Below are positions 2,113 through 13,289 of a DNA stretch of 13,467 nt, piece after piece. Origin of the DNA: Bacillota bacterium (GTDB lineage Bacteria > Bacillota > Clostridia > Clostridiales > Clostridiaceae); NCBI GenBank assembly GCA_030705885.1, contig JAUZPN010000085.1:1-13467 (forward strand). Direction: 5' to 3'. A program made the translations under genes and the position numbers. Position 1 is the stretch's first letter. Each line of letters begins with the position of its first letter. Under the pieces are notes generated by a model. It saw only the letters and a program-made list of their open reading frames with translations. It did not search any database and had not been told where the DNA came from.

Positions 2113-3345
2113 TTAATCAACTCCATACATGTTAAACATTCTATTTATATCACGGTATAGCTTTTGTTCTATAGTTTTGTTTGAGCATTCAAATGAAACT
2201 ATTCTGCCAATAAAACTCTTAATCCAAGGAAGAACTTCATTTCCATCGAATACCTCCTTAGCGTATATATATAAATTAGGTTCCAGCCTTTCAACTGTAC
2301 CATTCATACCTTCGAGTTTTAACCTATTTATAATATAAGATTCAAGTTCTTCATCAATGTATAGCTTCATTTTCAATATGCTGCCTCTGGAATTGTTACC
2401 AAATGAAACCCCCCAGCATTTATCTAAATTATTATTTAATCTTGATGTATAGAGATCATAATTTTCACATTTATTAAGTATTTCAACTGATTTAATATAA
2501 TCGAGCCTGTAATTTACAAATCTCTTTCTTGCTTCATTATAAATAGCAATATACCTACGCCCGGTTCTGCTGCTTATAAATATTTTAAGTGGGATGCCTT
2601 CATATTTTAGTATCAATTCAGTTTTAATACTTTGATTGATAAAACTTATTCTTTTCTTTGTTTTTATAGCTTCTAAAATATTATAAAGAATTTTATCCTC
2701 TAAAGTATGTACAATATAATTATGTTTAAAAATAAAAATGCTGTTTTTTTCATTTTCATTAGACATAAGGTAGCTGCCAATAACTCCAAAAGGAGCAGTG
2801 CCCTGGTAATATTTTATGGCATTTAATAAAGCTTCAGAGTTTACTGATATATTTGAAATATATTGTTTTGATAAACTATAATGCAAAGCTTTACCTGTTT
2901 TGCAGGCTGTAAGAATTCCATCCTTTACATATTCATTAGCTTTTATCCTTACAGTTTGTATATCAAAACAAATATCACTTTTTTTACATATATTATTTGT
3001 AATTTCATCAGCTGTAAGACAGGAGCTTGTACTTAATGTATCCAATATATAAAAATGAAGCATTATATCATTGGAGGTAAAGCTTTTTGATCTCCAAGCA
3101 TAGTAAAAAGGGTTTTCACTTATTTTTGAACTGTCAAGGCTTATAAAAACACGCTTGCCTCCCTTAAAGTTTTCCCATTTTATATAATTTCCAAGATAAC
3201 TTTCAATTCTTCTCTTTTCATTATCATAAGTTCGGCAGCTCTTTTTTGTAAAGTCTTTTCTTGTTTTAAAACCATAAATATAAAAATCGCGCATATAATC
3301 TCTTATTTTATCAAAGTTCTTAACTAGTTCTGAAAACTCAGCCAT
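2113..3345 (-). CDS. HTH-WYL-WCX family transcription regulator with N-terminal extension (PafB-like paralog, 410 aa)
   Basis: It has a strong WYL signature (GRRYIAIYNEARKRFVNYRLDYIKSVEIL). A WCX-like C-terminus is present (LPWIKSFIGRIVSFECSNKTIEQKLYRDI). A DeoR/HTH_11-like segment is present (KKSCRTYDNEKRRIESYL; ILDTLSTSSCLTADEITNNI). An SD-like AAGGCGGTG sits 6 nt upstream of the ATG at 3345. Confidence 0.6.
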   Translation of the reverse strand: MAEFSELVKNFDKIRDYMRDFYIYGFKTRKDFTKKSCRTYDNEKRRIESYLGNYIKWENFKGGKRVFISLDSSKISENPFYYAWRSKSFTSNDIMLHFYILDTLSTSSCLTADEITNNICKKSDICFDIQTVRIKANEYVKDGILTACKTGKALHYSLSKQYISNISVNSEALLNAIKYYQGTAPFGVIGSYLMSNENEKNSIFIFKHNYIVHTLEDKILYNILEAIKTKKRISFINQSIKTELILKYEGIPLKIFISSRTGRRYIAIYNEARKRFVNYRLDYIKSVEILNKCENYDLYTSRLNNNLDKCWGVSFGNNSRGSILKMKLYIDEELESYIINRLKLEGMNGTVERLEPNLYIYAKEVFDGNEVLPWIKSFIGRIVSFECSNKTIEQKLYRDINRMFNMYGVD

Positions 3346-3411
3346 ATTTTCACCGCCTTTTTAACTAATTTGAACTAACCATCCATGATGGTGGCAGCAT
3401 AACCACGAATA

Positions 3412-3432
3412 AAAATGGTGACAAGCCATTTT
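3412..3432. promoter_or_regulatory. Candidate dimeric-regulator operator (perfect 7-N7-7 inverted repeat), proximal copy
   Basis: AAAATGGtgacaagCCATTTT lies about 65 bp upstream of the WYL operon start codon. Its centre is about 62 bp (roughly 6 helical turns) from the second copy at 3474-3494. Confidence 0.35.
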
Positions 3433-3473
3433 CTAATTAACCACCCATGTTGGCTGCAGCACAACCACGGATA

Positions 3474-3494
3474 AAAATTGCAGCAAGCTATTTT
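3474..3494. promoter_or_regulatory. Candidate operator, distal copy (imperfect inverted repeat)
   Basis: AAAATTGcagcaagCTATTTT has one arm mismatch and occupies the same position within repeat unit 2. Confidence 0.3.
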
Positions 3495-3720
3495 TTAATT
3501 AAATATTATAAGGGAAGCATAGATTATAGGTATAATTTTAGCAGTTTAGTGCAATAAAAACAATTAGTGAGTTAATTTCGCAACTTTTTTTATATGATAA
3601 AATTATTTGCTTATGGTAATATTTATCCATGGAAGGTGAGAAAAATAATTCCATAATAAAATGTTCTCTTACTATGTTTGATAACAAAGTTTTACTAAAT
3701 TATTAAAATAAGATTTTGTC

Positions 3721-3768
3721 CGATATCATTTATAAATTAAATTGAACTAAATGTGACGAGGAAAGTAT
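3721..3768 (+). repeat. Partial copy (right ~48 bp) of the ~103-bp inverted-repeat element
   Basis: cgatatcatttataaattaaattgaactaaatgtgacgaggaaagtat aligns with the right half of the copies at 5065-5167 and 8502-8604. Confidence 0.55.
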
Positions 3769-3772
3769 GATT
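3743..3772 (+). promoter_or_regulatory. Sigma-A-like promoter for rtcB embedded in the partial element (TTGAAC-N18-TATGAT)
   Basis: -35 TTGAAC is at 3743-3748, followed by an 18-bp spacer and -10 TATGAT at 3767-3772, which is 45 bp upstream of the rtcB ATG. Relative to the full copies (TGGAAC-N19), this copy has a G-to-T change that improves the -35 and a 1-bp shorter spacer. Confidence 0.4.
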
Positions 3773-3816: not shown

Positions 3817-5049
3817 ATGTTTGTTATAAACAATGAACAAACTAAAAAACCAATAAAAATATGGCTGGAAAATGAAGAAAGTTTAGAGGATACTTGTCTA
3901 GAACAAGCATATAAATTATCACAGCTGCCATTTATTCATAAATGGGTAGCACTTATGCCTGATACTCATGCTGGAATGGGTATGCCTATAGGCGGAGTAA
4001 TTGCTTGTAAAAATGTTATTATCCCAAATGCAGTAGGAGTAGATATAGGATGTGGTATGTCTTTCATTGGTACAGATATTAAAGTAGATGATATAAAAGG
4101 TATAACTACACCAAATGGAAGTTTGTTTAAAGGAATTATTGGTGATATTTTAAGAAATGTACCTGTTGGCTTTGCTCATCATAAAACAGCAAAACCATGC
4201 GATGCATTAGATAGAGCAAAAGAAGAAATGGATAAATACAAAAGTCAGCCTGAATTAACTGGTCAAATAGAGGATGGATATTTTCAGGTAGGAACTTTAG
4301 GAGGAGGAAATCATTTTATTGAAATACAGGAAGATGAAGAAGGTTGTCTTGGAATAATGCTTCATTCAGGAAGTCGTAATTTTGGTAAACGTATATGTGA
4401 TTATTTCAATAAAGCTGCTAAAGAGCTAAATGAAAAATGGTATTCTAAAGTACCTCCAGAAGATAGATTAGCTTTTCTTCCAGCAGACACAAAGGAAGGA
4501 ATTGACTATATAAACTGGATGAATCTAGCCTTAGATTTTGCAAAAGAGAATAGAGATAGTATGATGGTAGAAATAAAAAATGTTCTAGAAAAATGGATAA
4601 GTAAATATACTAAGATTAAATTTAAATATACTATAGAAGTAAACTGCCACCATAATTATGCTAGTATTGAAAACCATTATGACAGCAATGTATGGGTTCA
4701 CAGAAAAGGGGCAATAAGAGCAAGAGAAGGAGAAATTGGAATAATACCAGGGGCTATGGGGTCTTACAGCTATATTGTTATAGGTAAAGGAAATCAGGAA
4801 AGCTTCTATTCATGTTCTCATGGTGCAGGAAGACGATACTCAAGGAAAGCAGCAATGGAAAACTTTACAGTAGAACAAGTTATGCTGGATTTAAAACAGC
4901 AAAATGTTGTCCTTGGTAAAACATCTAAAAAGGATGTACCTGAGGAAAGCAGATTTGCTTATAAAGATATTGAAGAAGTAATGAAATCTCAAACAGAATT
5001 AGTTACTCCAATTAAAAGACTCAAAACATTGGGAGTGGTTAAGGGATAA
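3817..5049 (+). CDS. rtcB: RtcB family RNA 3'-phosphate (2',3'-cyclic phosphate) to 5'-OH RNA ligase, 410 aa
   Basis: Metal/GTP-site motifs of RtcB are present: DTHAGMGMPIGG, GCGMSF (Cys), GGGNHFIEIQ, HSGSRNFG, NCHHNYA, SHGAGR. Size is bacterial-type (~408 aa). RBS AAAGGAAG lies 8 nt upstream. Confidence 0.92.
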   Translation: MFVINNEQTKKPIKIWLENEESLEDTCLEQAYKLSQLPFIHKWVALMPDTHAGMGMPIGGVIACKNVIIPNAVGVDIGCGMSFIGTDIKVDDIKGITTPNGSLFKGIIGDILRNVPVGFAHHKTAKPCDALDRAKEEMDKYKSQPELTGQIEDGYFQVGTLGGGNHFIEIQEDEEGCLGIMLHSGSRNFGKRICDYFNKAAKELNEKWYSKVPPEDRLAFLPADTKEGIDYINWMNLALDFAKENRDSMMVEIKNVLEKWISKYTKIKFKYTIEVNCHHNYASIENHYDSNVWVHRKGAIRAREGEIGIIPGAMGSYSYIVIGKGNQESFYSCSHGAGRRYSRKAAMENFTVEQVMLDLKQQNVVLGKTSKKDVPEESRFAYKDIEEVMKSQTELVTPIKRLKTLGVVKG

Positions 5050-5064
5050 TATATTTATTATAAG

Positions 5065-5167
5065 TATACTATCCTCGGTCACAAAGTTCCAATAAATTTC
5101 CAAAAGAAGCTTCACCTCGCTATCATTTACAAATTAATTGGAACTAAATGTGTCCGAGGAAAGTATA
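5065..5167 (+). mobile_element. ~103-bp MITE-like element with imperfect 19-bp terminal inverted repeats, copy B
   Basis: TIRs are TATACTATCCTCGGTCACA ... TGTGTCCGAGGAAAGTATA. A nested inner inverted repeat is present (AGTTCCAATAAATT ... AATTAATTGGAACT). It is about 93% identical to the copy at 8502-8604. The right end carries TGGAAC-N19-TATAAA, an outward promoter-like module. Confidence 0.55.
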
Positions 5168-5330
5168 AATAAGATTATTACAGATTTGACAAGTGTCATC
5201 TGTTTAATATAACTGAAATTTTTTATGCTAAGGCTTATGATGCCTTGCGGTGCTTGAGTCTATGACGATAAAGTATACCGAAATTTCAGGTTTTGTTGTG
5301 AATGACGAAGGTTCGATTCCTTTATTGCCA

Positions 5331-5403
5331 TGTGCAATTAGCTCAGAGGTAGAGCATCACCAGATTAAATTGGATTTTGGAGGTTCGAATCCCCCACAAA
5401 GAC
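5331..5403 (+). ncRNA. tRNA-like element: canonical D-arm and T-arm, degenerate anticodon and acceptor regions (tRNA mimic or tRNA-Lys/Asn-derived pseudogene)
   Basis: The D-arm GCTC-AGAGGTA-GAGC is at 5341-5355, preceded by T8-A9. The T-arm GGAGG-TTCGAAT-CCCCC is at 5379-5395 with one stem mismatch. The anticodon-arm position (TCACC-AGATTAA-ATTGG) cannot form a 5-bp stem. The 5' and 3' acceptor strands are not complementary, and there is no encoded CCA. The anticodon-arm 3' half resembles tRNA-Lys(UUU) (TCAATTGG vs TAAATTGG). A further T-arm-like fragment (GAAGG-TTCGATT-CCTTT, 5308-5324) and a GC-rich 5-bp hairpin (AAGGC-ttatgat-GCCTT, 5230-5246) lie upstream. Confidence 0.5.
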
Positions 5404-5482: not shown

Positions 5483-5709
5483 AAGATATCACTGTTTGTA
5501 TTTTACTTTCATTTCTTAGGCAGAAATCTTAATTTATACTATGTTTAGTCATGAAATTTCAATAAATTTCAGCTATACATAGTACAATTAGATAACATAA
5601 GGAACCAAAGTAATTTACAACAGCTCAATTTAAACTCCGCTTCAGTTATGTGGTATTAAGATATAGTTCTAAGCTATAAATTAAAGTATCTAAAAAGGGG
5701 TTGTTAAAG

Positions 5710-6810
5710 ATGGATCATATTATAAATGAAAATCAGAGAGGTTATTTGTTTAGAAATGGATGCTTTGTAAAACTATTATCATCAGGAAAATACAACTTTC
5801 CAAGATTTCTTGGATATAGAGTTGAAAGTGCATTGATAAACGATGAAGCTATTTCAGCAAGTGTTAATATAAATGTACTCTTAAAAGATAAATTATTTTC
5901 AAAAAGCATAACTAGTATAATGGTGGTTGATAACAAAATAGCTGTTCACTTTATAAATGGAAGAATAAAAAATATATTGCAGAGCGGAGAGTATTATTTC
6001 TGGAATATTTTTAATAAGCATACTTTTGAAATAATTGATATGTCAAGTACTGAAGTTTCAAAGGAAATAGATAGAACAATTTTTAATTATATTCCTATAA
6101 AGTATTATACAAAAATAATAGTACCTGATGGACAAAAAGCAATATTATATTTTGATGGAAAGCTTAACAAAGAACTTAGCTGTGGCACTTATTTTTACTG
6201 GAATGTTAAAGAACAAGTATCATATCAGCTTGTAGATATGAGGCTTCAGCAACTTGAAATTTCAGGGCAGGAAATATTAACTACAGATAAGGTAAGTCTT
6301 AGAATCAATTTTAACTGCATTTATAGAATAAAGAATGCTGTTAAAATATTATCTGAAATAAGAGATTATAAGGTTCAGATTTACAGTCTTATTCAGCTTG
6401 TTCTTAGAGAATATGTTGGAGGCTTTAAATTTGATGAGCTTTTAGATCAAAAGGAAGAAATTGCAGCATTTGTGCTTACTAAATTGAAAGAAAAACAGGA
6501 TGAATATTTTATAGAATTTACTACTGCAGGTATAAAGGATATTATACTTCCAGGCGAAATTAAAGAAATTATGAATACAGTACTTATTGCAGAAAAGACA
6601 GCACAGGCAAATGTAATAACAAGGCGTGAAGAGGTTGCATCTACTAGAAGCCTTTTAAATACTGCAAAGCTTATGGATGAAAACAAAACTCTATACAAGC
6701 TCAAGGAAATGGAGTATATTCAAAAAATATGTGATAAGGTTGGAAGTATATCATTAGGCGGCGGAGAAAATCTCTTGAACCAGCTTAACGAATTGCTGTG
6801 CCAGAAATAA
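5710..6810 (+). CDS. SPFH/band-7 domain protein (YdjI/COG4260-like) with a triplicated N-terminal beta-repeat
   Basis: The central region resembles the SPFH fold (QEILTTDKVSLRINFNCIYRIKNAVKILSEIRDYKVQIYSLIQLVLREYVGGFKFDELL), followed by a coiled-coil-like tail. Three N-terminal repeats match G-x-Y-x-F/Y-W-N...VE/D (res 29-45, 95-112, 161-178). I chose the ATG at 5710 with GGGG 9 nt upstream. The ORF track begins at TTG 5701. Confidence 0.65.
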   Translation: MDHIINENQRGYLFRNGCFVKLLSSGKYNFPRFLGYRVESALINDEAISASVNINVLLKDKLFSKSITSIMVVDNKIAVHFINGRIKNILQSGEYYFWNIFNKHTFEIIDMSSTEVSKEIDRTIFNYIPIKYYTKIIVPDGQKAILYFDGKLNKELSCGTYFYWNVKEQVSYQLVDMRLQQLEISGQEILTTDKVSLRINFNCIYRIKNAVKILSEIRDYKVQIYSLIQLVLREYVGGFKFDELLDQKEEIAAFVLTKLKEKQDEYFIEFTTAGIKDIILPGEIKEIMNTVLIAEKTAQANVITRREEVASTRSLLNTAKLMDENKTLYKLKEMEYIQKICDKVGSISLGGGENLLNQLNELLCQK

Positions 6811-6946: not shown

Positions 6947-7933
6947 ATGAAACCTGTTTTTCGCTCAAATTTATTTGCATGTATCCTTATTTTTCTCTAT
7001 GTTTTTGCAGGAGGTTTTGTTCTTGTACGCCTTCATATTCCAAATTACATACTTATCGCTCTTGCAGAAGTCCTATTTCTCCTTGTACCTACTATAATAT
7101 ATTTTTATATTACAAAATTGTCTGTGATCAATACATTAAGACTTCATAAGATTAATATTAAGAGTATAGGAGTAGTTATTTTAATTGTAGCATGCTGCTT
7201 TCCTATTGCAACATTTGCATCATTAGTAACACAGCTCTTTTTTACTAATAATACTGCAAAGGTAATGAATTCGTTTATGTCGCTTCCGCTTATTTTACTT
7301 ATATTGATAACTGCAGTAACACCTGCTGTGTGTGAGGAAGTTACTATGCGTGGGGTTGTACTTTCTGGATATAAAAATGTGGATATAAAAAAGGCTGCAA
7401 TAATGAATGGACTTATTTTTGGATTGTTTCATATGAACCCAGACCAGTTTTTATATGCTTTTGCGTTAGGTGTTATTTTTGCATATATTGTTGATATAAC
7501 AAATTCTATTTTTTCCACAATGATTGCCCATTTTACATTTAATGGTTCACAAACTGTAATGGCTTGGCTTGTAATTAAGTTTTCTCCTTTTTTAAATCAA
7601 GGAACAAAAACTAATGCAGAAACTAGTTTTAGTCAATATTCATTACATCTAAAAGTTATTATGCTAAGTTTTTCATTTGCTTTTGCAGCAGGAAGTGTTG
7701 TACTTGTTGTTTTATTGCTTAAATTATTAAAATCAGTTAATAAAGATAAAATAGCAGAAAAATATGGTAATGGTTTTGAAAATAATGAAGACATATCTGA
7801 GAACAATGAAGTAGGATTATTATATAATAATTATAAACCTAAAAAGGAGAGAGTAGTAAATCTGCCTTTTATATTGATAGTACTTTTATATATTGTTTAT
7901 ATTGGATGGCATTTTTCAAAATTTGCAGCATGA
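6947..7933 (+). CDS. CPBP family intramembrane glutamic endopeptidase (CAAX protease/Abi family), 328 aa polytopic membrane protein
   Basis: The three CPBP signature motifs are present: EExxxR (CEEVTMRG), FxxxH (FGLFH) and HxxxN (AHFTFN). Hydrophobic helices run throughout. Confidence 0.8.
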   Translation: MKPVFRSNLFACILIFLYVFAGGFVLVRLHIPNYILIALAEVLFLLVPTIIYFYITKLSVINTLRLHKINIKSIGVVILIVACCFPIATFASLVTQLFFTNNTAKVMNSFMSLPLILLILITAVTPAVCEEVTMRGVVLSGYKNVDIKKAAIMNGLIFGLFHMNPDQFLYAFALGVIFAYIVDITNSIFSTMIAHFTFNGSQTVMAWLVIKFSPFLNQGTKTNAETSFSQYSLHLKVIMLSFSFAFAAGSVVLVVLLLKLLKSVNKDKIAEKYGNGFENNEDISENNEVGLLYNNYKPKKERVVNLPFILIVLLYIVYIGWHFSKFAA

Positions 7934-7975: not shown

Positions 7976-8020
7976 AAACAAAGTTCAATTTTGGAACTTT
8001 ATGACCTAGCATAGTATAAT
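7976..8020 (+). repeat. Degenerate fourth copy of the element right end (fused inner inverted repeat AGTTCAA-ttt-TGGAACT plus TTGGAA-N18-TATAAT)
   Basis: ttggaactttatgacctagcatagtataataa aligns with copy C ttggaactaaatgtgaccaaggaaagtataataa. The -35/-10 spacing is good and the module points toward ileS. Confidence 0.4.
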
Positions 8021-8057: not shown

Positions 8058-8085
8058 TTGACAATACAAATATTAATATTATAAT
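8058..8085 (+). promoter_or_regulatory. Strong sigma-A consensus promoter upstream of the ileS leader (TTGACA-N16-TATAAT)
   Basis: TTGACA is at 8058-8063 and TATAAT at 8080-8085. With ATAATA at 8081-8086 the spacing is 17. Confidence 0.5.
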
Positions 8086-8194
8086 ATTTGTATGAATGAA
8101 TAAAATAGTATACTTTTCTCGAACACTTTTAATTCCGCTTAATTAGAAAATAGCTTGTCACTGTTTTCATCCGTAGTTGTGATACAATCATCAT

Positions 8195-8350
8195 GAATGG
8201 TTAATTTATAAATGATAACGGAGAGAATCTTCTTTACAGAAGTTTAGCAGAACTTTGTGACTAGAGATAGTATAAATTAAAGCTGTGAGCAGGAAAAGTA
8301 CTAAAAATTGATACTTAAAGAGAGTGGGGTTAGGTGGAAACCCATAGTAA
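8195..8350 (+). promoter_or_regulatory. T-box riboswitch-like leader, Stem I region plus first T-box-like sequence
   Basis: GGAGAGA is followed by AUC (Ile codon, 8227-8229). The segment CUAGAGAUAGUAUAAAUUAAAGCUGUGAGCAGG resembles the conserved distal Stem I platform of T-boxes (cf. glyQS CUAGGAUAGUGAAAGCUAGAGG). UUAGGUGGAAACCC at 8330-8343 resembles the T-box consensus UUAGGGUGGNACC. No terminator follows this copy. Confidence 0.4.
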
Positions 8351-8501
8351 GTTTTTAGGAAAATCACCTGGGAGTGGAAAGCTGAATAGTAAACTCATGT
8401 TAATTGGATATTTTATAATACATTTTTCTTGAATATATTTAATTTATAAATAACAGCATAGAGAAGATTTTTAAAATTAATGAGATTTTGTGTTTAATAG
8501 A

Positions 8502-8604
8502 TATACTATCCTCAGTCACAAAGTTCCAATAAATTTCTAAAAGAAACTTCACATCGCTATCATTTAAAAATTAATTGGAACTAAATGTGACCAAGGAAAG
8601 TATA
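8502..8604 (+). mobile_element. ~103-bp MITE-like inverted-repeat element, copy C, inside the ileS 5' leader
   Basis: It is about 93% identical to copy B, with TIRs TATACTATCCTCAGTCACA ... TGTGACCAAGGAAAGTATA. The right end carries TGGAAC-N19-TATAAT pointing at ileS. Confidence 0.55.
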
Positions 8605-8689
8605 ATAATAGTCCAAATTTAAGAGTTTTAGTAGGTGCATCCGTAATCCTGCGTTAAGGGATAGAGTATGTTAGTGCTTGAAAAAATGC

Positions 8690-8743
8690 TGTTTTAGGTG
8701 GTTTTGTGAAGTTAGCTTCATCCTATTAGGATGGAGCTTTTTT
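8690..8743 (+). terminator. T-box-type antiterminator/terminator attenuator immediately upstream of ileS
   Basis: A second TTAGGTGG (8694-8701) is followed by terminator AGCTTCATCC-tatta-GGATGGAGCT and TTTTT (8714-8743). The T-box-like sequence overlaps the 5' arm of the terminator, as expected for mutually exclusive folds. ileS starts at 8818. Confidence 0.5.
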
Positions 8744-8817
8744 GTGTAATTTAAGCACATTACTTAATATAAAAACAATCAGTAATTGTTTAGTTTAATA
8801 AGAAAGGGGAAAATTAT

Positions 8818-11800
8818 ATGTACAAAAAAGTTGACTCAACAAGAAGTTTTGTTGATATGGAAAAAGAAGTACTAAAGCTATGGCAGGAAAAAGATATAAT
8901 CCAAAAAAACTTTGATTTGAATAAGGATGGAGAATATTTTACATTTTATGATGGACCTCCTACAGCAAATGGAAAGCCTCATATAGGTCATGTTATAACA
9001 AGAGTTATGAAGGATTTAATTCCTAGATACAAGGTTATGAAAGGTTATAAGGTTTTAAGAAAGGCAGGCTGGGATACTCATGGACTTCCAGTAGAATTGG
9101 AAGTTGAAAAGTCTCTTGGAATTTCAGGAAAGCCTGAAATAGAAGAATATGGAGTAGAAGGTTTCATAAAAAAATGTAAAGAAAGTGTATTTACATATTC
9201 AAGTCTTTGGAAGGATATGTCCGAGAAGGTTGGCTTCTGGGTAGACATGGAAAATCCTTATGTAACATATCATAATGATTATATTGAATCAGAATGGTGG
9301 GCTCTTAAAAAAATTTGGGATAAGGGACTTATTTATAAAGGTCATAAAATAGTGCCATATTGTCCAAGATGCGGAACCGCTCTTTCATCTCATGAAGTTG
9401 CTCAAGGCTATAAAGATGTAAAAGAAACTTCAGTATATGTTAAATTTAAAATAGTAAATGAAGATAAATATATATTAGCATGGACAACTACTCCTTGGAC
9501 ACTTCCAAGTAATGTAGCACTTGCTATCAATAAAAAATATGAATATGTTGAAGTAATAAATAATGATGAACATTTGATTCTTGCTAAATCATTATTAAAT
9601 AAATTAGATGGTGAATATGAAATTGTAAGGGAATTCCTTGGTGAAGAATTAGTTGGAACTCAATATGAACAGCTATTTAAGTTTGCAAAACCTGATAAGA
9701 AAGCTTTTTATGTGGTTCATGCAGATTATGTAACACTTACAGATGGTACAGGTGTAGTTCATACTGCTCCTGCCTATGGTGAAGATGATAATCTTACTGG
9801 TAAGAAATATGATTTACCATTAATCAACTTAGTTGATGCTGAAGGTAAATTTGTAGATGAAGTTGAACCTTGGAAAGGTATGTTTGTTAAAACAGCAGAC
9901 CCTAAGGTAATAGAGTTTATGAGAGAAAATGGAATACTTTATAAAGCTGAGAAGTTTACTCACTCTTATCCTTTCTGCTGGAGATGTGATACACCGCTTT
10001 TATACTATCCAAGACAGAGCTGGTTTATAAAAATGTCTTCTTTAAGAGACAAACTCGTAGCTAATAATAATACTGTTAACTGGTATCCTGACAATGTTAG
10101 AACAGGAAGATTTGGTAACTTTATTGAAAATGTTATTGACTGGGGTATAAGCAGAGAAAGATATTGGGGAACTCCAATACCAATTTGGGAATGTGAATGT
10201 GGTCACAGAGAATGTATAGGAAGCATTGAAGAACTAAAGCAAAAAGGAATTAATGTATCTGAAAATATAGAACTTCACAAACCTTATATTGATGAGGTTA
10301 AATTAACCTGTCCTCACTGTGGAAAATTAATGAAGAGAATTTCAGAAGTTATAGATTGCTGGTTTGATTCTGGTTCTATGCCTTTTGCACAGCATCACTA
10401 TCCTTTTGAAAATAAAGAAATTTTTGAGCAGAATTTCCCAGCACAATTTATTTCAGAAGCAGTGGATCAAACAAGAGGATGGTTTTATACATTAATGGCT
10501 ATATCAACAATTTTGTTTGATAAAGCACCTTTTGAGAACTGTGTAGTTTTAGGTCATATTCTTGATAAAAATGGACTTAAGATGTCAAAGCATAAGGGAA
10601 ATGTATTAAGTCCATTTACAGTACTTGAAAATGAAGGTGCTGATGCAACAAGATGGTATTTTTATACTGCAAGTGCACCATGGCTTCCTTCAAGGTTTTA
10701 TGAAGATGCTGTAATAGAAGCTCAAAGGAAATTTATAAGTACATTATGGAATGTATATTCCTTCTATGTGCTTTATGCAGAAATAGATAAATTTGATCCA
10801 ACTAAATATGAAGATTTTGTTTCATCAAATGTAATGGATAAGTGGATAATGTCAAGACTTAATACTCTTGTAAACAAAGTTGATGAAGATCTTAACGGCT
10901 ATAGAATAACTCAGGCTGCACTTTCAATAGAAGATTTTACAGATGAGCTTTCAAACTGGTATGTTAGAAGAAACAGATCAAGATATTGGGTTGAAGAATT
11001 AACAGAGGATAAAATAGGTGCATATGTAACCTTATATAGGGTGATTACTACATTATCCATAGTTTCAGCACCATTTGTTCCATTTATAACAGAAGAAATC
11101 TATCAGAATTTAGTGACAGCTCTGAATAAAAATGCTCCTGAAAGTGTTCATCTGTGCAAATGGCCTGAAGTGAAGGATAATATAATTGATAAAGCTTTAG
11201 AAGCTGAAATGGAAGAAGCTTATAAAATCGTTAAGCTTGGAAGAAGTGCTAGAAATGGTGCTAATATTAAAAACAGGCAGCCTCTTTTAGAAATGCTTCT
11301 AAGTGTAGATACATTACCATCATATTATGGGAATATTATAAAGGATGAACTTAATATTAAAGAAGTAAAATTTGGTGCAGACCTTTCAAAATATGTTAAT
11401 TTTGAAATTAAGCCAAACTTACCTGTGCTTGGTAAAGCTTATGGCAGATTTATTCCTGGCATAAAGAAAGAAATAGCTGCTATGAACCAAATGGAGCTTG
11501 CTTCAAAAATTCAAGCTGGAGAAACTGTTGTAATTAATGTTCAAGGTACTGAAATTGAACTTAACAGTGAAAAGCTTCTTATAACTATGCAGGGACTTGA
11601 AGGCTATGCATTCGCAGGAGAAGGACATATAGGTGTAGTTTTGGATACAACTATAACTCCTGAACTTAAGGAAGAGGGACATCAAAGAGAAATCATAAGC
11701 AAGATTCAAAATATGAGAAAAGAAAAAGGCTTTGAAGTTGCTGATAAGATTAATCTTTATGTAAGTGATAATGAAATGCTTGAAAATGTAGTTAAAAAAT

Positions 11801-11922
11801 TTGAAGACTTTATTAAAAAAGAAACACTTACAGTTGGAGTAACCTATGGCAGTGAAAGACAATATACTGAATGCAGCATTAATGGAGAAAAATTTAATAT
11901 CGATGTAGAAGTAGTTAAGTAA
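8818..11922 (+). CDS. ileS: Isoleucine--tRNA ligase, type 2 (eukaryote-like, 1034 aa, no C-terminal zinc-knuckle)
   Basis: Class I aaRS motifs are present: HIGH ([13 protein letters not shown]) and KMSKS (KMSKHKGN). A CP1 editing domain, tRNA-binding WCISR-like ([14 protein letters not shown]) and the IleRS anticodon-binding region are recognisable. The C-terminus has a single Cys, so there is no CxxC...CxxC. A strong RBS is present: AAGAAAGGGGAAAATTAT-ATG. Confidence 0.95.
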
Positions 11923-11967: not shown

Positions 11968-12035
11968 GTTAAGAAAGCTGTCAACAATGAAAACATATTA
12001 AAATATGAAGAAATGGAGATGTGGAAGCAAAAAAT

Positions 12036-13070
12036 ATGAGAAAAATATCAATTGAACCATTTGCAAAGCAGTTAATTGATGATATGTATAAAAACTATGA
12101 TTACACTATCGAAGATTTCAGCTTAATTAAAGGAATAAGTGTACCTTGGGGACTTTCTAAAATTCTTCAAAATGGAACAAAAATTAATATACTTTTTTTA
12201 AGTCACGATGATGATATCCTAAATATCAACTCTGACAGCAATATATATGATATTATTGATGTAAAAAAAGAGAAAATTGTTAAAATAATATTGATAGGAG
12301 AAGATATTGATGATAGTGAGGTAATAAGTAAATTAAATTATCTCAGTGATTTTAAGGCAATTGAGAATAATTCAATTATAATAGACTTGATACATAGCAC
12401 AATTCAAATATCAGACAACAGTATCGAGGAAATAGCAAAACAAATAAATAGTATTGTTAGTGTAAACAGCAGGGCCAAGCAGAATAAAATAAATTCTGCT
12501 GCAACATATACACTAATTGGCATTAATATATTTATGTTTATTATTTCAATCATATTAAATGGCGGGAATCCTATAGATATAAATAATTATGTATTAATTA
12601 TGCTTGGAGCAAAATATAATACGGCTATAATACAAGGACAATGGTTTCGTCTATTAACATGTACATTTTTACATGGAGGACTTGTACATATTGCTGCAAA
12701 TATGTATTCCTTATATTCAGTAGGGCCACTAGTTGAATCTTTATATGGAAAATATAAATATATATTTATGTACTTAATAGCAGGTATTGTATCATCATTA
12801 TTTAGTTTTCTATTTAGCACCGGCATATCCATAGGAGCATCTGGCTCTATATTTGGTCTTTTGGGAATTATTTTAGTGTTTGCTTTAAAGAAAAAAAAGA
12901 CACTTGGCAGAAAATTTTTAATGAATGTATCATCAGTAATAGCAGTAAATTTATTAATAGGCTTTAGCCTTCCAGGAATTGACAATTTTGCTCACTTAGG
13001 AGGATTGTTTGCAGGTATATTTTTAGCATTAATAATAAGAACATCAGAGAACACAAACAGGGACGGTTAA
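12036..13070 (+). CDS. Rhomboid family intramembrane serine protease with ~160-aa N-terminal cytoplasmic domain
   Basis: The catalytic Ser motif GASGSIFGLLG and catalytic His motif AHLGGLFAG are present, along with YRLLTCTFLHGG (WR-loop-like) and six hydrophobic helices in the C-terminal half. I preferred ATG 12036 (GGAAG 9 nt upstream) over the GTG at 12021 used by the ORF track. Confidence 0.8.
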   Translation: MRKISIEPFAKQLIDDMYKNYDYTIEDFSLIKGISVPWGLSKILQNGTKINILFLSHDDDILNINSDSNIYDIIDVKKEKIVKIILIGEDIDDSEVISKLNYLSDFKAIENNSIIIDLIHSTIQISDNSIEEIAKQINSIVSVNSRAKQNKINSAATYTLIGINIFMFIISIILNGGNPIDINNYVLIMLGAKYNTAIIQGQWFRLLTCTFLHGGLVHIAANMYSLYSVGPLVESLYGKYKYIFMYLIAGIVSSLFSFLFSTGISIGASGSIFGLLGIILVFALKKKKTLGRKFLMNVSSVIAVNLLIGFSLPGIDNFAHLGGLFAGIFLALIIRTSENTNRDG

Positions 13071-13289
13071 CAACTTATCATCTTTAGCGAGCAGGGTAGG
13101 GTAGGGTAGGTAACAGGGTAACAGGGACGGTTAACAACTTATTAGCTTTAGCGAGTAAGATGTTAACCGTCCCTAATTTCATGCAAATGATGACTATTCA
13201 TATTTGCCAAAGAAATGATAACCGTCCCTGATACTGATACTGATACTGATATAGCCATTCTCAATTGTCAAAAAAATGATAACCGTCCC
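13058..13289. repeat. Cluster of five GGGACGGTTA(A/T)C motifs (2 forward, 3 reverse) plus a 34-bp direct repeat, a 14-bp perfect hairpin, a G-run array and (GATACT)4
   Basis: Forward copies are at 13060 and 13124, within the 34-bp direct repeats CAGGGACGGTTAACAACTTATYAKCTTTAGCGAG. Reverse copies are at 13162, 13217 and 13277. AGGGACGGTTAACA-24nt-TGTTAACCGTCCCT has perfect 14-bp arms (13123-13174). GGGTAGGGTAGGGTAGGTAACAGGGTAACAGGG is at 13093-13127. GATACT x4 is at 13230-13253. Confidence 0.7.

Follow-up and report, generated by a model that had tools for sequence, protein, structure and literature searches.

T-boxes are pictured as molecular rulers in which the modules have to dock on one and the same tRNA, and their decision falls during transcription. 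The canonical class-I T-boxes of ileS and other aminoacyl-tRNA synthetase (aaRS) genes (Rfam RF00230) carry the same modules in the same order 5' of the aaRS gene. Some leaders contain tandem T-boxes, with two or even three complete units one after another, for instance in Bacillus subtilis thrZ and some trp operons. The present study concerns the leader of ileS, the isoleucyl-tRNA synthetase (IleRS) gene, in JAUZPN010000085.1, a 13,467-nt contig of a metagenome-assembled genome (MAG) labeled "Bacillota bacterium" by NCBI (G+C content, 30.5%), the whole of which is called the window below. The leader is, as the original prediction had noted, unusually long, extending over ~725 nt from a promoter at 8058-8085 to the ATG at 8818. 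Its modules and their order are those of the canonical T-boxes, but it differs from them in that 242 nt derived from an apparently mobile repeat lie in the loop of Stem II, ~180 nt of repeats precede Stem I, the specifier is 328 nt away from the T-box sequence (median, 114 nt; range, 83-178 nt in 42 relatives), and the Rfam score is below the gathering score. With a probability of roughly 75%, we interpret this leader as a single class-I, transcription-attenuating T-box for isoleucine that has been spread apart by repeat insertions and probably still works. Sequence comparison shows the homology and colinearity of all modules, the nested and polymorphic nature of the insertions, a promoter and a Stem I that are conserved, and the intact pairing of the expression platform, and the interpretation is built on these results.

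A precedent for an insertion within a T-box is stem Sa of the staphylococcal glyS T-boxes, a functional 42-nt element that lies in the terminator/antiterminator domain and is found in all staphylococci (PMC9177973). The inserts described here resemble stem Sa in being structured, tolerated, and lineage-specific, but those of the window and its closest relative are 139-242 nt long, lie in the Stem II loop, are derived from mobile repeats, evolve neutrally, and differ between genomes that are 98% related. Small palindromic repeats are also known from bacterial 5' untranslated regions, such as BOX, RUP, and SPRITE of Streptococcus pneumoniae and the Correia elements; the review that treats them mentions only "potential T-box motifs in BOX elements" and no repeat inside a working T-box (PMC10969869). 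Our literature search yielded no description of a T-box with a mobile repeat within it, which does not prove that none exists.

The comparison drew on 80 ileS loci obtained from a scan of genome contigs, which did not return the species of the window itself and the best matches of which were 78-82% identical, and on two closer relatives found by protein search, designated L081 (IleS 98% identical) and L082 (IleS 85% identical). Judged from IleS similarity, the place of the window is among Clostridium sensu stricto. Two repeats have to be distinguished in the leader: X, which is palindromic and ~104 nt long and whose copies are called A to E, and the shorter Y. The features of the leader are as follows.

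8058-8085, + strand: native ileS promoter, with -35 TTGACA (8058-8063), a 16-nt spacer, and -10 TATAAT (8080-8085), matching the consensus at 12/12 positions
8096-8275, + strand: upstream insert between promoter and Stem I, consisting of the inverted, degenerate X copy D (8106-8151 and 8201-8274) broken by Y (8139-8214)
8276-8376, + strand: T-box Stem I, aligned with RF00230 model positions 1-104 (67.1 bits, E = 3.1e-14)
8376-8386, + strand: 5' strand of Stem II and GAA half of the S-turn/terminal-loop motif (GGAAAGCUGAA), matching the GGnnGCUGAA of all relatives
8387-8628, + strand: nested 242-nt insert in the Stem II terminal loop, made up of an outer helix, old copy E, and young copy C
8502-8605, + strand: copy C of X, with arms TATACTATCCTCAGTCACAAAGTTCCAAT and ATTGGAACTAAATGTGACCAAGGAAAGTATA, 97/104 (93%) identical to copy B
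8629-8642, + strand: AGUA half of the S-turn motif and 3' strand of Stem II (UAGUAGGUGCAUCC), aligning with UAGUAAGCnnnnCC of the relatives
8642-8662, + strand: Stem IIA/B pseudoknot region with F-box GCGUUA (8651-8656); CGUAAUCCUGCGUUAAGGGAU is nearly identical in all relatives
8671-8692, + strand: Stem III, placed approximately by homology; the GUGCUUGAA block aligns with Stem III of the relatives
8696-8724, + strand: antiterminator with T-box sequence, composed of AGG, the bulge UGGUUUU (8699-8705), the helix GUGAAG/CUUCAU, and CCU
8714-8743, + strand: intrinsic terminator from the terminator scan, with an 11-bp stem (8714-8738) and a U-run (8739-8743)

The nine closest of the relatives tested each possess a single complete T-box, which is 208-281 nt long, has a score of 96-116 bits, and ends 46-208 nt 5' of the start codon. 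In a MAFFT alignment, the leader of the window is colinear with these nine in all modules and has a single interruption, which falls between GCUGAA (8381-8386) and UAGUA (8629-8633) and amounts to 242 nt between GAA and AGUA, compared with 3-20 nt in typical relatives. The sequences bordering the interruption are well preserved, 8376-8386 being identical in L081 and 8629-8642 being the same in L081 and nearly so in L082. Stem I comprises the kink-turn region, the specifier loop, the AG bulge (AGAGA, 8319-8323), and a distal loop of the GGUGGAA type (GUUAGGUGGAAA, 8329-8340); its specifier, at 8363-8365, is the isoleucine codon AUC, as in all relatives, and is followed by the purine A8366. The promoter, which is of the sigma-70 type and from which transcription is predicted to start at ~8092-8094, has a counterpart (TTGACAAT...TATAAT) 3-55 nt 5' of Stem I in the nine relatives and L082. 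The leader of L082 is compact, with its promoter ~35 nt 5' of Stem I and 20 nt between GAA and AGUA. The leader of L081 is long and lacks C but carries D, Y, and E.

Tandem T-boxes had been proposed for this leader, and its length, together with the presence of two GGUGG-containing motifs (8330-8343 and 8694-8701), is indeed reminiscent of them. The latter motif, UUAGGUGG at 8694-8701, was confirmed to be followed by a clean terminator (8714-8738) and a U-run. The former, UUAGGUGGAAACCC, turned out to be the distal loop of Stem I in the RF00230 alignment, and the strings GGAGAGAAUC and CUAGAGAUAGUA at 8195-8275, which had been taken for parts of Stem I, lie in the inverted repeat copy D and are absent from the L082 leader. 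Because only one each of Stem I, specifier, F-box, antiterminator, and + strand terminator was found, in an order colinear with the single T-boxes of the relatives, the proposal of two complete units in series is rejected.

The pairing of the expression platform is intact. All of the tested pairs of the antiterminator (8/8) form in the window, and the antiterminator and the terminator overlap over 8714-8724 and are mutually exclusive. The terminator, with its stem at 8714-8738, is the sole + strand intrinsic terminator called by the terminator scan in the 885 nt that separate the CAAX protease gene from ileS, a stretch that contains the whole leader. Across 26 Clostridium ileS leaders, the antiterminator is paired in 98% of cells, compared with 38-57% for slid controls, and the terminator in 93%, with double changes at 6 pairs; slid controls for both helices together gave 34-60%. 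The lineage of the window and L081 alone has U-A in the antiterminator where 23 others carry C-G, and it has G-C where most others of the 26 leaders have A-U. These replacements are, on the evidence of the alignment, compensatory and keep both helices.

The gathering score of RF00230 is 93 bits; at this threshold the window, L081, and L082 gave no match, and permissive E-value searches were needed for all three. The permissive match in the window spans 8276-8385, of which only the Stem I part (8276-8376) was aligned while the remaining model was skipped, and the 3' part of the model gave a weak second match at 8600-8728 (16.7-20.3 bits). The search with this model, which had been suggested as a check, was therefore borne out in part: nothing was found at the gathering score, but Stem I at 67.1 bits and a weak 3' half emerged under permissive conditions. 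Rfam reports the halves separately because the model cannot bridge the insert. The leader of L082, in comparison, aligns with the model from end to end at 75 bits, which is also under the gathering score because both the lower helix of Stem II and the T-box sequence have diverged in this lineage, and the shortfall of the window is thus due in part to lineage divergence and in part to the insert. By the features of sequence and structure that were tested, the leader belongs to the T-box family, apart from falling short of the curated score and lacking a convincing helix for Stem II.

The idea that a single T-box had been split by a repeat is supported as to the single unit and its splitting, which occurred within the Stem II loop, but the insertions have a more complex history than copy C alone would give. 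The insert in that loop is nested, the corresponding insert of L081 already measures 139 nt without C, and a second block of repeats occupies 8096-8275. The outer helix of the Stem II insert pairs ~8391-8409 with 8611-8628, including AAACUC/GAGUUU. Inside it, E (~8418-8501) is an old, decayed, inverted X-like copy that could be aligned over nearly its full length with reverse-complemented X (65-68% identity; score 46-53, compared with 31.8 +/- 4.7 for shuffles). Copy C, the reality of which was confirmed at 8502-8605, is missing from L081, where 8 nt (GTGGTAGT) stand in the place of C and a few further bases; at C, these 8 nt were replaced rather than duplicated. A possible TAGTA duplication flanks the entire 242-nt insert in the window, and its left copy reads TAACA in L081. 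The upstream insert is shared by L081 as the D and Y block and is not present in L082; it gave BLAST and repeat matches of 77-83% to X copies and 76-81% to the Y copies at 3373-3502, and the D segment 8201-8274 is 78% identical to C. Repeat Y itself is ~65 nt long and ends in TTAATT; two overlapping tandem copies occupy 3373-3502, in the intergenic region between the WYL-domain gene and rtcB, and the third copy (8139-8214) is inverted and nested within the decayed D of the ileS leader.

Repeat X is non-coding and has inverted arms of ~29 nt, and it occurs within the 13.5 kb as copies A, B, and C, the decayed copies D and E, and fragments. Those outside the leader are listed below.

5065-5168, + strand: copy B of X, just 3' of rtcB, the closest relative of C
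3670-3771, + strand: copy A of X, degenerate (~77%), 5' of rtcB
7991-8018, - strand: inverted X arm fragment 5' of the ileS promoter, 86-89% identical to the left arm of X

Copies B and C differ at 7/104 sites, a divergence below the neutral distance between the window and L081 (0.119), which suggests that C arose after the two genomes had split. L081 has an X copy of its own between ileS and the rhomboid gene (5017-5104), where the window has none (a 104-column gap), and an X-family copy at the start of its contig (1-46), 5' of the CAAX protease gene. Because each of the two genomes has copies that the other lacks, X is, as far as the comparison goes, mobile on this timescale. It resembles the MITEs (miniature inverted-repeat transposable elements) and the REPINs in that it is short and non-coding, has inverted arms and several intergenic copies, is polymorphic, and is predicted to form a stable RNA hairpin, but it differs from them in having no clean target-site duplication and no identified transposase and in having been found only in this MAG lineage. 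It was not found in the ileS loci of the other 80 relatives, and a degenerate X-arm pattern retrieved 42 loci from JGI metagenomes, none of which was similar beyond the pattern, indicating chance matches. A 307-aa Y1 transposase (PF01797) encoded at 12023-12946 of L081, scoring 51.8 bits against the model of REP-associated tyrosine transposases, below its cutoff of 80, is a candidate mobilizer of palindromic repeats.

Since C is a copy of a repeated sequence in a 13.5-kb MAG contig, an exact look-up of the window's IleS protein retrieved no entry, and a second assembly bearing precisely this allele has not been recorded, it might be regarded as an artifact of repeat-induced misjoining. Unique leader sequence lies on both sides of C, however, and is colinear with the independent assembly L081, which also bears out the remainder of the long leader, with D, Y, and E. 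In addition, C differs from B at 7 positions and is not a collapsed duplicate. We therefore consider misassembly highly improbable.

The arms of X can resemble promoters in some contexts, judging from the TTGAAC-18-TATGAT at the right end of copy A (3724-3771), ~50 nt 5' of the start codon of rtcB, and from the TTGGAA-18-TATAAT at 7991-8020. A possible promoter in the right end of D, immediately 5' of Stem I, was considered and rejected: its -35 matches the consensus at 1/6 positions, and a start there would truncate Stem I. The original prediction had ascribed to the inserted repeat an outward promoter that would drive an attenuator-only transcript, bypass Stem I, and thereby rewire the control of ileS. 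The right end of C does contain TATAAT (8601-8606) with TTGGAA 5' of it (8575-8580), and the related arm fragment at 7991-8020 matches the promoter consensus at 10/12 positions. The two hexamers in C are 20 nt apart, however, without an extended -10, and were not called by the promoter scan. Moreover, a transcript without the specifier would stop by default at the intact terminator at 8714-8743 and could not drive ileS, while the upstream promoter and Stem I are conserved as their surroundings drift. Their conservation speaks for a start of transcription at ~8092. Such a bypass is unsupported and, in our view, very unlikely.

This conservation was quantified by comparing the window with L081, for which the neutral rate was taken from four-fold sites (43/361, 0.119). 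The promoter region (8058-8095) shows 0/38 differences (P = 0.008), and Stem I with the 5' strand of Stem II (8276-8386) shows 4/111 (P = 0.002); two of these four changes (8306 and 8313) are in helices, where the pairs are retained as G.U. The D and Y block (8096-8275), with 22/180 differences, and the left part of the Stem II insert (8387-8501), with 15/112, are both neutral. The contrast between functional segments and inserts is significant (Fisher P = 4e-7). Because the conserved islands lie between drifting inserts on a scale of 100 nt, these values are a sign that purifying selection acts on the promoter and on Stem I in genomes that already carried D, Y, and E. To our knowledge, Stem I has no use without a downstream expression platform, and its conservation, therefore, speaks for a split T-box that works. 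A continued response of the switch to tRNA-Ile, above all now that C has recently been inserted, is what we infer from these comparisons.

The Stem II loop also accommodates foreign sequence elsewhere in the genus. In Clostridium paridis (L023, 5354-5604), the only other outlier in leader geometry among the relatives compared, an insert of ~230 nt lies at the same Stem II loop site, between GGAGGCUGAA and UAGUAAGCUUUUCC. Rfam splits this T-box in the same way as that of the window, into Stem I (70 bits) and the 3' half (25 bits), and both halves are intact. The sequence of the insert is unrelated, containing a 28-nt tandem repeat in ~2.9 copies, and the insertion is independent. The site corresponds to an Rfam-annotated hairpin loop, which varies in length among the relatives and occasionally contains a small helix. 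The loop has thus taken large inserts at least twice independently and is, by this comparison, a permissive site.

If the leader is one working T-box, RNA polymerase would start at the conserved sigma-70-type promoter (8058-8085), and the AUC specifier in Stem I would read the anticodon of tRNA-Ile while the AG bulge and the distal loop stack on the tRNA elbow. The 3' NCCA end of uncharged tRNA would pair with the UGGU of the T-box bulge (8699-8702), and this pairing would stabilize the antiterminator (8696-8724) over the terminator (8714-8743), leading to read-through into ileS. X has colonized the leader on three or more occasions: D lies between the promoter and Stem I, and E and then C entered the Stem II loop in nested fashion. 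Because the Stem II loop is variable and points outward, and the inserts are self-complementary, they would be expected to fold on themselves and extend Stem II outward, leaving the tRNA-binding surfaces intact. The S-turn of Stem II reportedly makes contact with the specifier-anticodon duplex (cited in PMC9177973), and we infer that a loop extension growing outward need not disturb this contact. The predicted folding of the insert with its Stem II flanks (8376-8642) agrees with such a picture: the ends are paired, C forms its own long hairpin, and the minimum free energy (MFE) is -52.5 kcal/mol (z = -3.1). On its own, C folds into a hairpin of -32.7 kcal/mol, and the separate fold of D has -32.5 kcal/mol. 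The terminator scan called no terminator inside the insert, and there is no U-run after the C hairpin.

Several results, on the other hand, weigh against the interpretation of a working single T-box. The window contains no T-box match at the Rfam gathering score. The lower helix of Stem II, whose halves are 242 nt apart in the window, is non-canonical in this lineage and pairs poorly even in the compact leader of L082, its predicted pairing probability being low. The equilibrium prediction pairs D and C in a duplex of ~100 bp that encloses Stem I; their cofold has -92.2 kcal/mol, compared with -65.2 kcal/mol for separate folds, and the duplex is present in the MFE structure of the full leader (-158.9 kcal/mol, z = -5.4). 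In the nested model, the closure probability of Stem II is 0.00 with C, as against 0.10-0.29 with C deleted. Finally, the 3' half of the T-box, which shows 0/117 differences from L081, lies within a 382-nt tract of low divergence (8606-8987) that contains only two differences and includes 170 nt of ileS without a synonymous change, where ~5 would be expected. Its start coincides exactly with the right junction of C, and it may reflect a recombination event that stopped at the heterology of the insertion. The use of the 0/117 identity as a sign of purifying selection on the 3' half was withdrawn, as the identity runs on into synonymous sites of ileS.

These results might mean that the leader is one T-box by descent but was impaired by the insertion of C, which would pair with D, trap Stem I, and block Stem II, so that tRNA-dependent antitermination is weakened or lost and the allele is mildly deleterious or a segregating polymorphism. 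The gain of ~27 kcal/mol on cofolding D and C, the presence of the D:C duplex in the MFE structure, and the fall of Stem II closure to 0.00 would all be in keeping with impairment, as would the absence of C from the 98%-related L081; constraint dating from after the arrival of C does not stand out separately in the comparison. As a near-perfect palindrome, however, C should fold locally upon transcription, and since the termination decision follows only ~140 nt after C, there may be too little time for strands to be exchanged with D. Even in the equilibrium prediction with the D:C duplex, the pairing probability of the Stem I core remains at 0.73, and Stem II is already weak in L082. In addition, ileS is as a rule an essential gene, and its terminator is intact; a switch that no longer worked would deprive the cell of IleRS unless much read-through took place. 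We judge impairment, the leading alternative, to be unlikely, though to a degree that still has to be reckoned with. A bolder reading is that the long-range D:C duplex adds a layer of control to the sensing of tRNA-Ile and that T-boxes in general use the terminal loop of Stem II as an expansion site, tolerating hundreds of nucleotides of foreign RNA that folds on itself there, which we regard as quite doubtful. If true, the duplex could act as a clamp that forms slowly, or be cut by RNase III, and so disconnect Stem I from the expression platform, and the alleles with C (window) and without it (L081) would represent a natural experiment in the rewiring of a riboswitch by a mobile element.

The leader lies in the following gene context.

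17-1066, + strand: ilvD (partial)
1114-2109, - strand: unknown gene
2113-3345, - strand: WYL-domain protein gene
3817-5049, + strand: rtcB
5701-6810, + strand: SPFH protein gene
6947-7933, + strand: CAAX protease gene
8818-11922, + strand: ileS, encoding a 1034-aa isoleucyl-tRNA synthetase of the long form, with Pfam domains tRNA-synt_1, Anticodon_1, and the C-terminal DUF5915
12021-13070, + strand: rhomboid protease gene

The homologs of ileS found in the protein search are annotated as isoleucine--tRNA ligase. ARAGORN found no tRNA in the window, and a check of the leader for open reading frames that might encode a leader peptide gave only short ones with no apparent significance. Just 3' of rtcB and X copy B, 5277-5396 matches a Y-RNA-like family (YrlA, RF02553) below threshold (42.2 bits; gathering score, 69; E = 5.7e-8) and overlaps a tRNA-like stretch (RF00005, 24 bits). 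A divergent WYL-domain gene lies 5' of rtcB, and no obvious Ro gene was seen in the window; 5277-5396 may be a diverged Y-RNA-like gene in the rtcB locus. Just 3' of the rhomboid gene, 13056-13289 holds a cluster of short repeated or palindromic units (AACAGGGACGGTTAAC...), among them direct repeats (13056-13091 and 13120-13155), an inverted pair of 25 nt (13123-13174), and three copies that end in ATGATAACCGTCCC. Among the relatives, Clostridium polynesiense (L004) has an array of clustered regularly interspaced short palindromic repeats with ~24 repeats (Rfam CRISPR-DR2) at 2-1623, 5' of ileS, and a second T-box at 11267-11494, both of which are unrelated to the present finding.

The regulator, its mechanism, and the gene it controls are ordinary; what is notable is the architecture of the leader, its polymorphism, and its invisibility to standard annotation. 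This is a natural leader in which repeats have entered both Stem II and the region before Stem I, yet the promoter and Stem I remain constrained, and with C. paridis carrying an insert at the same site, it suggests that the loop of Stem II is permissive in both structural and kinetic terms. Annotation by covariance models at curated thresholds misses leaders of this kind, and repeat-invaded riboswitches are, therefore, probably under-counted. The alleles with and without C would also lend themselves directly to testing what a longer transcription time and competing long-range pairing do to a switch that acts co-transcriptionally.

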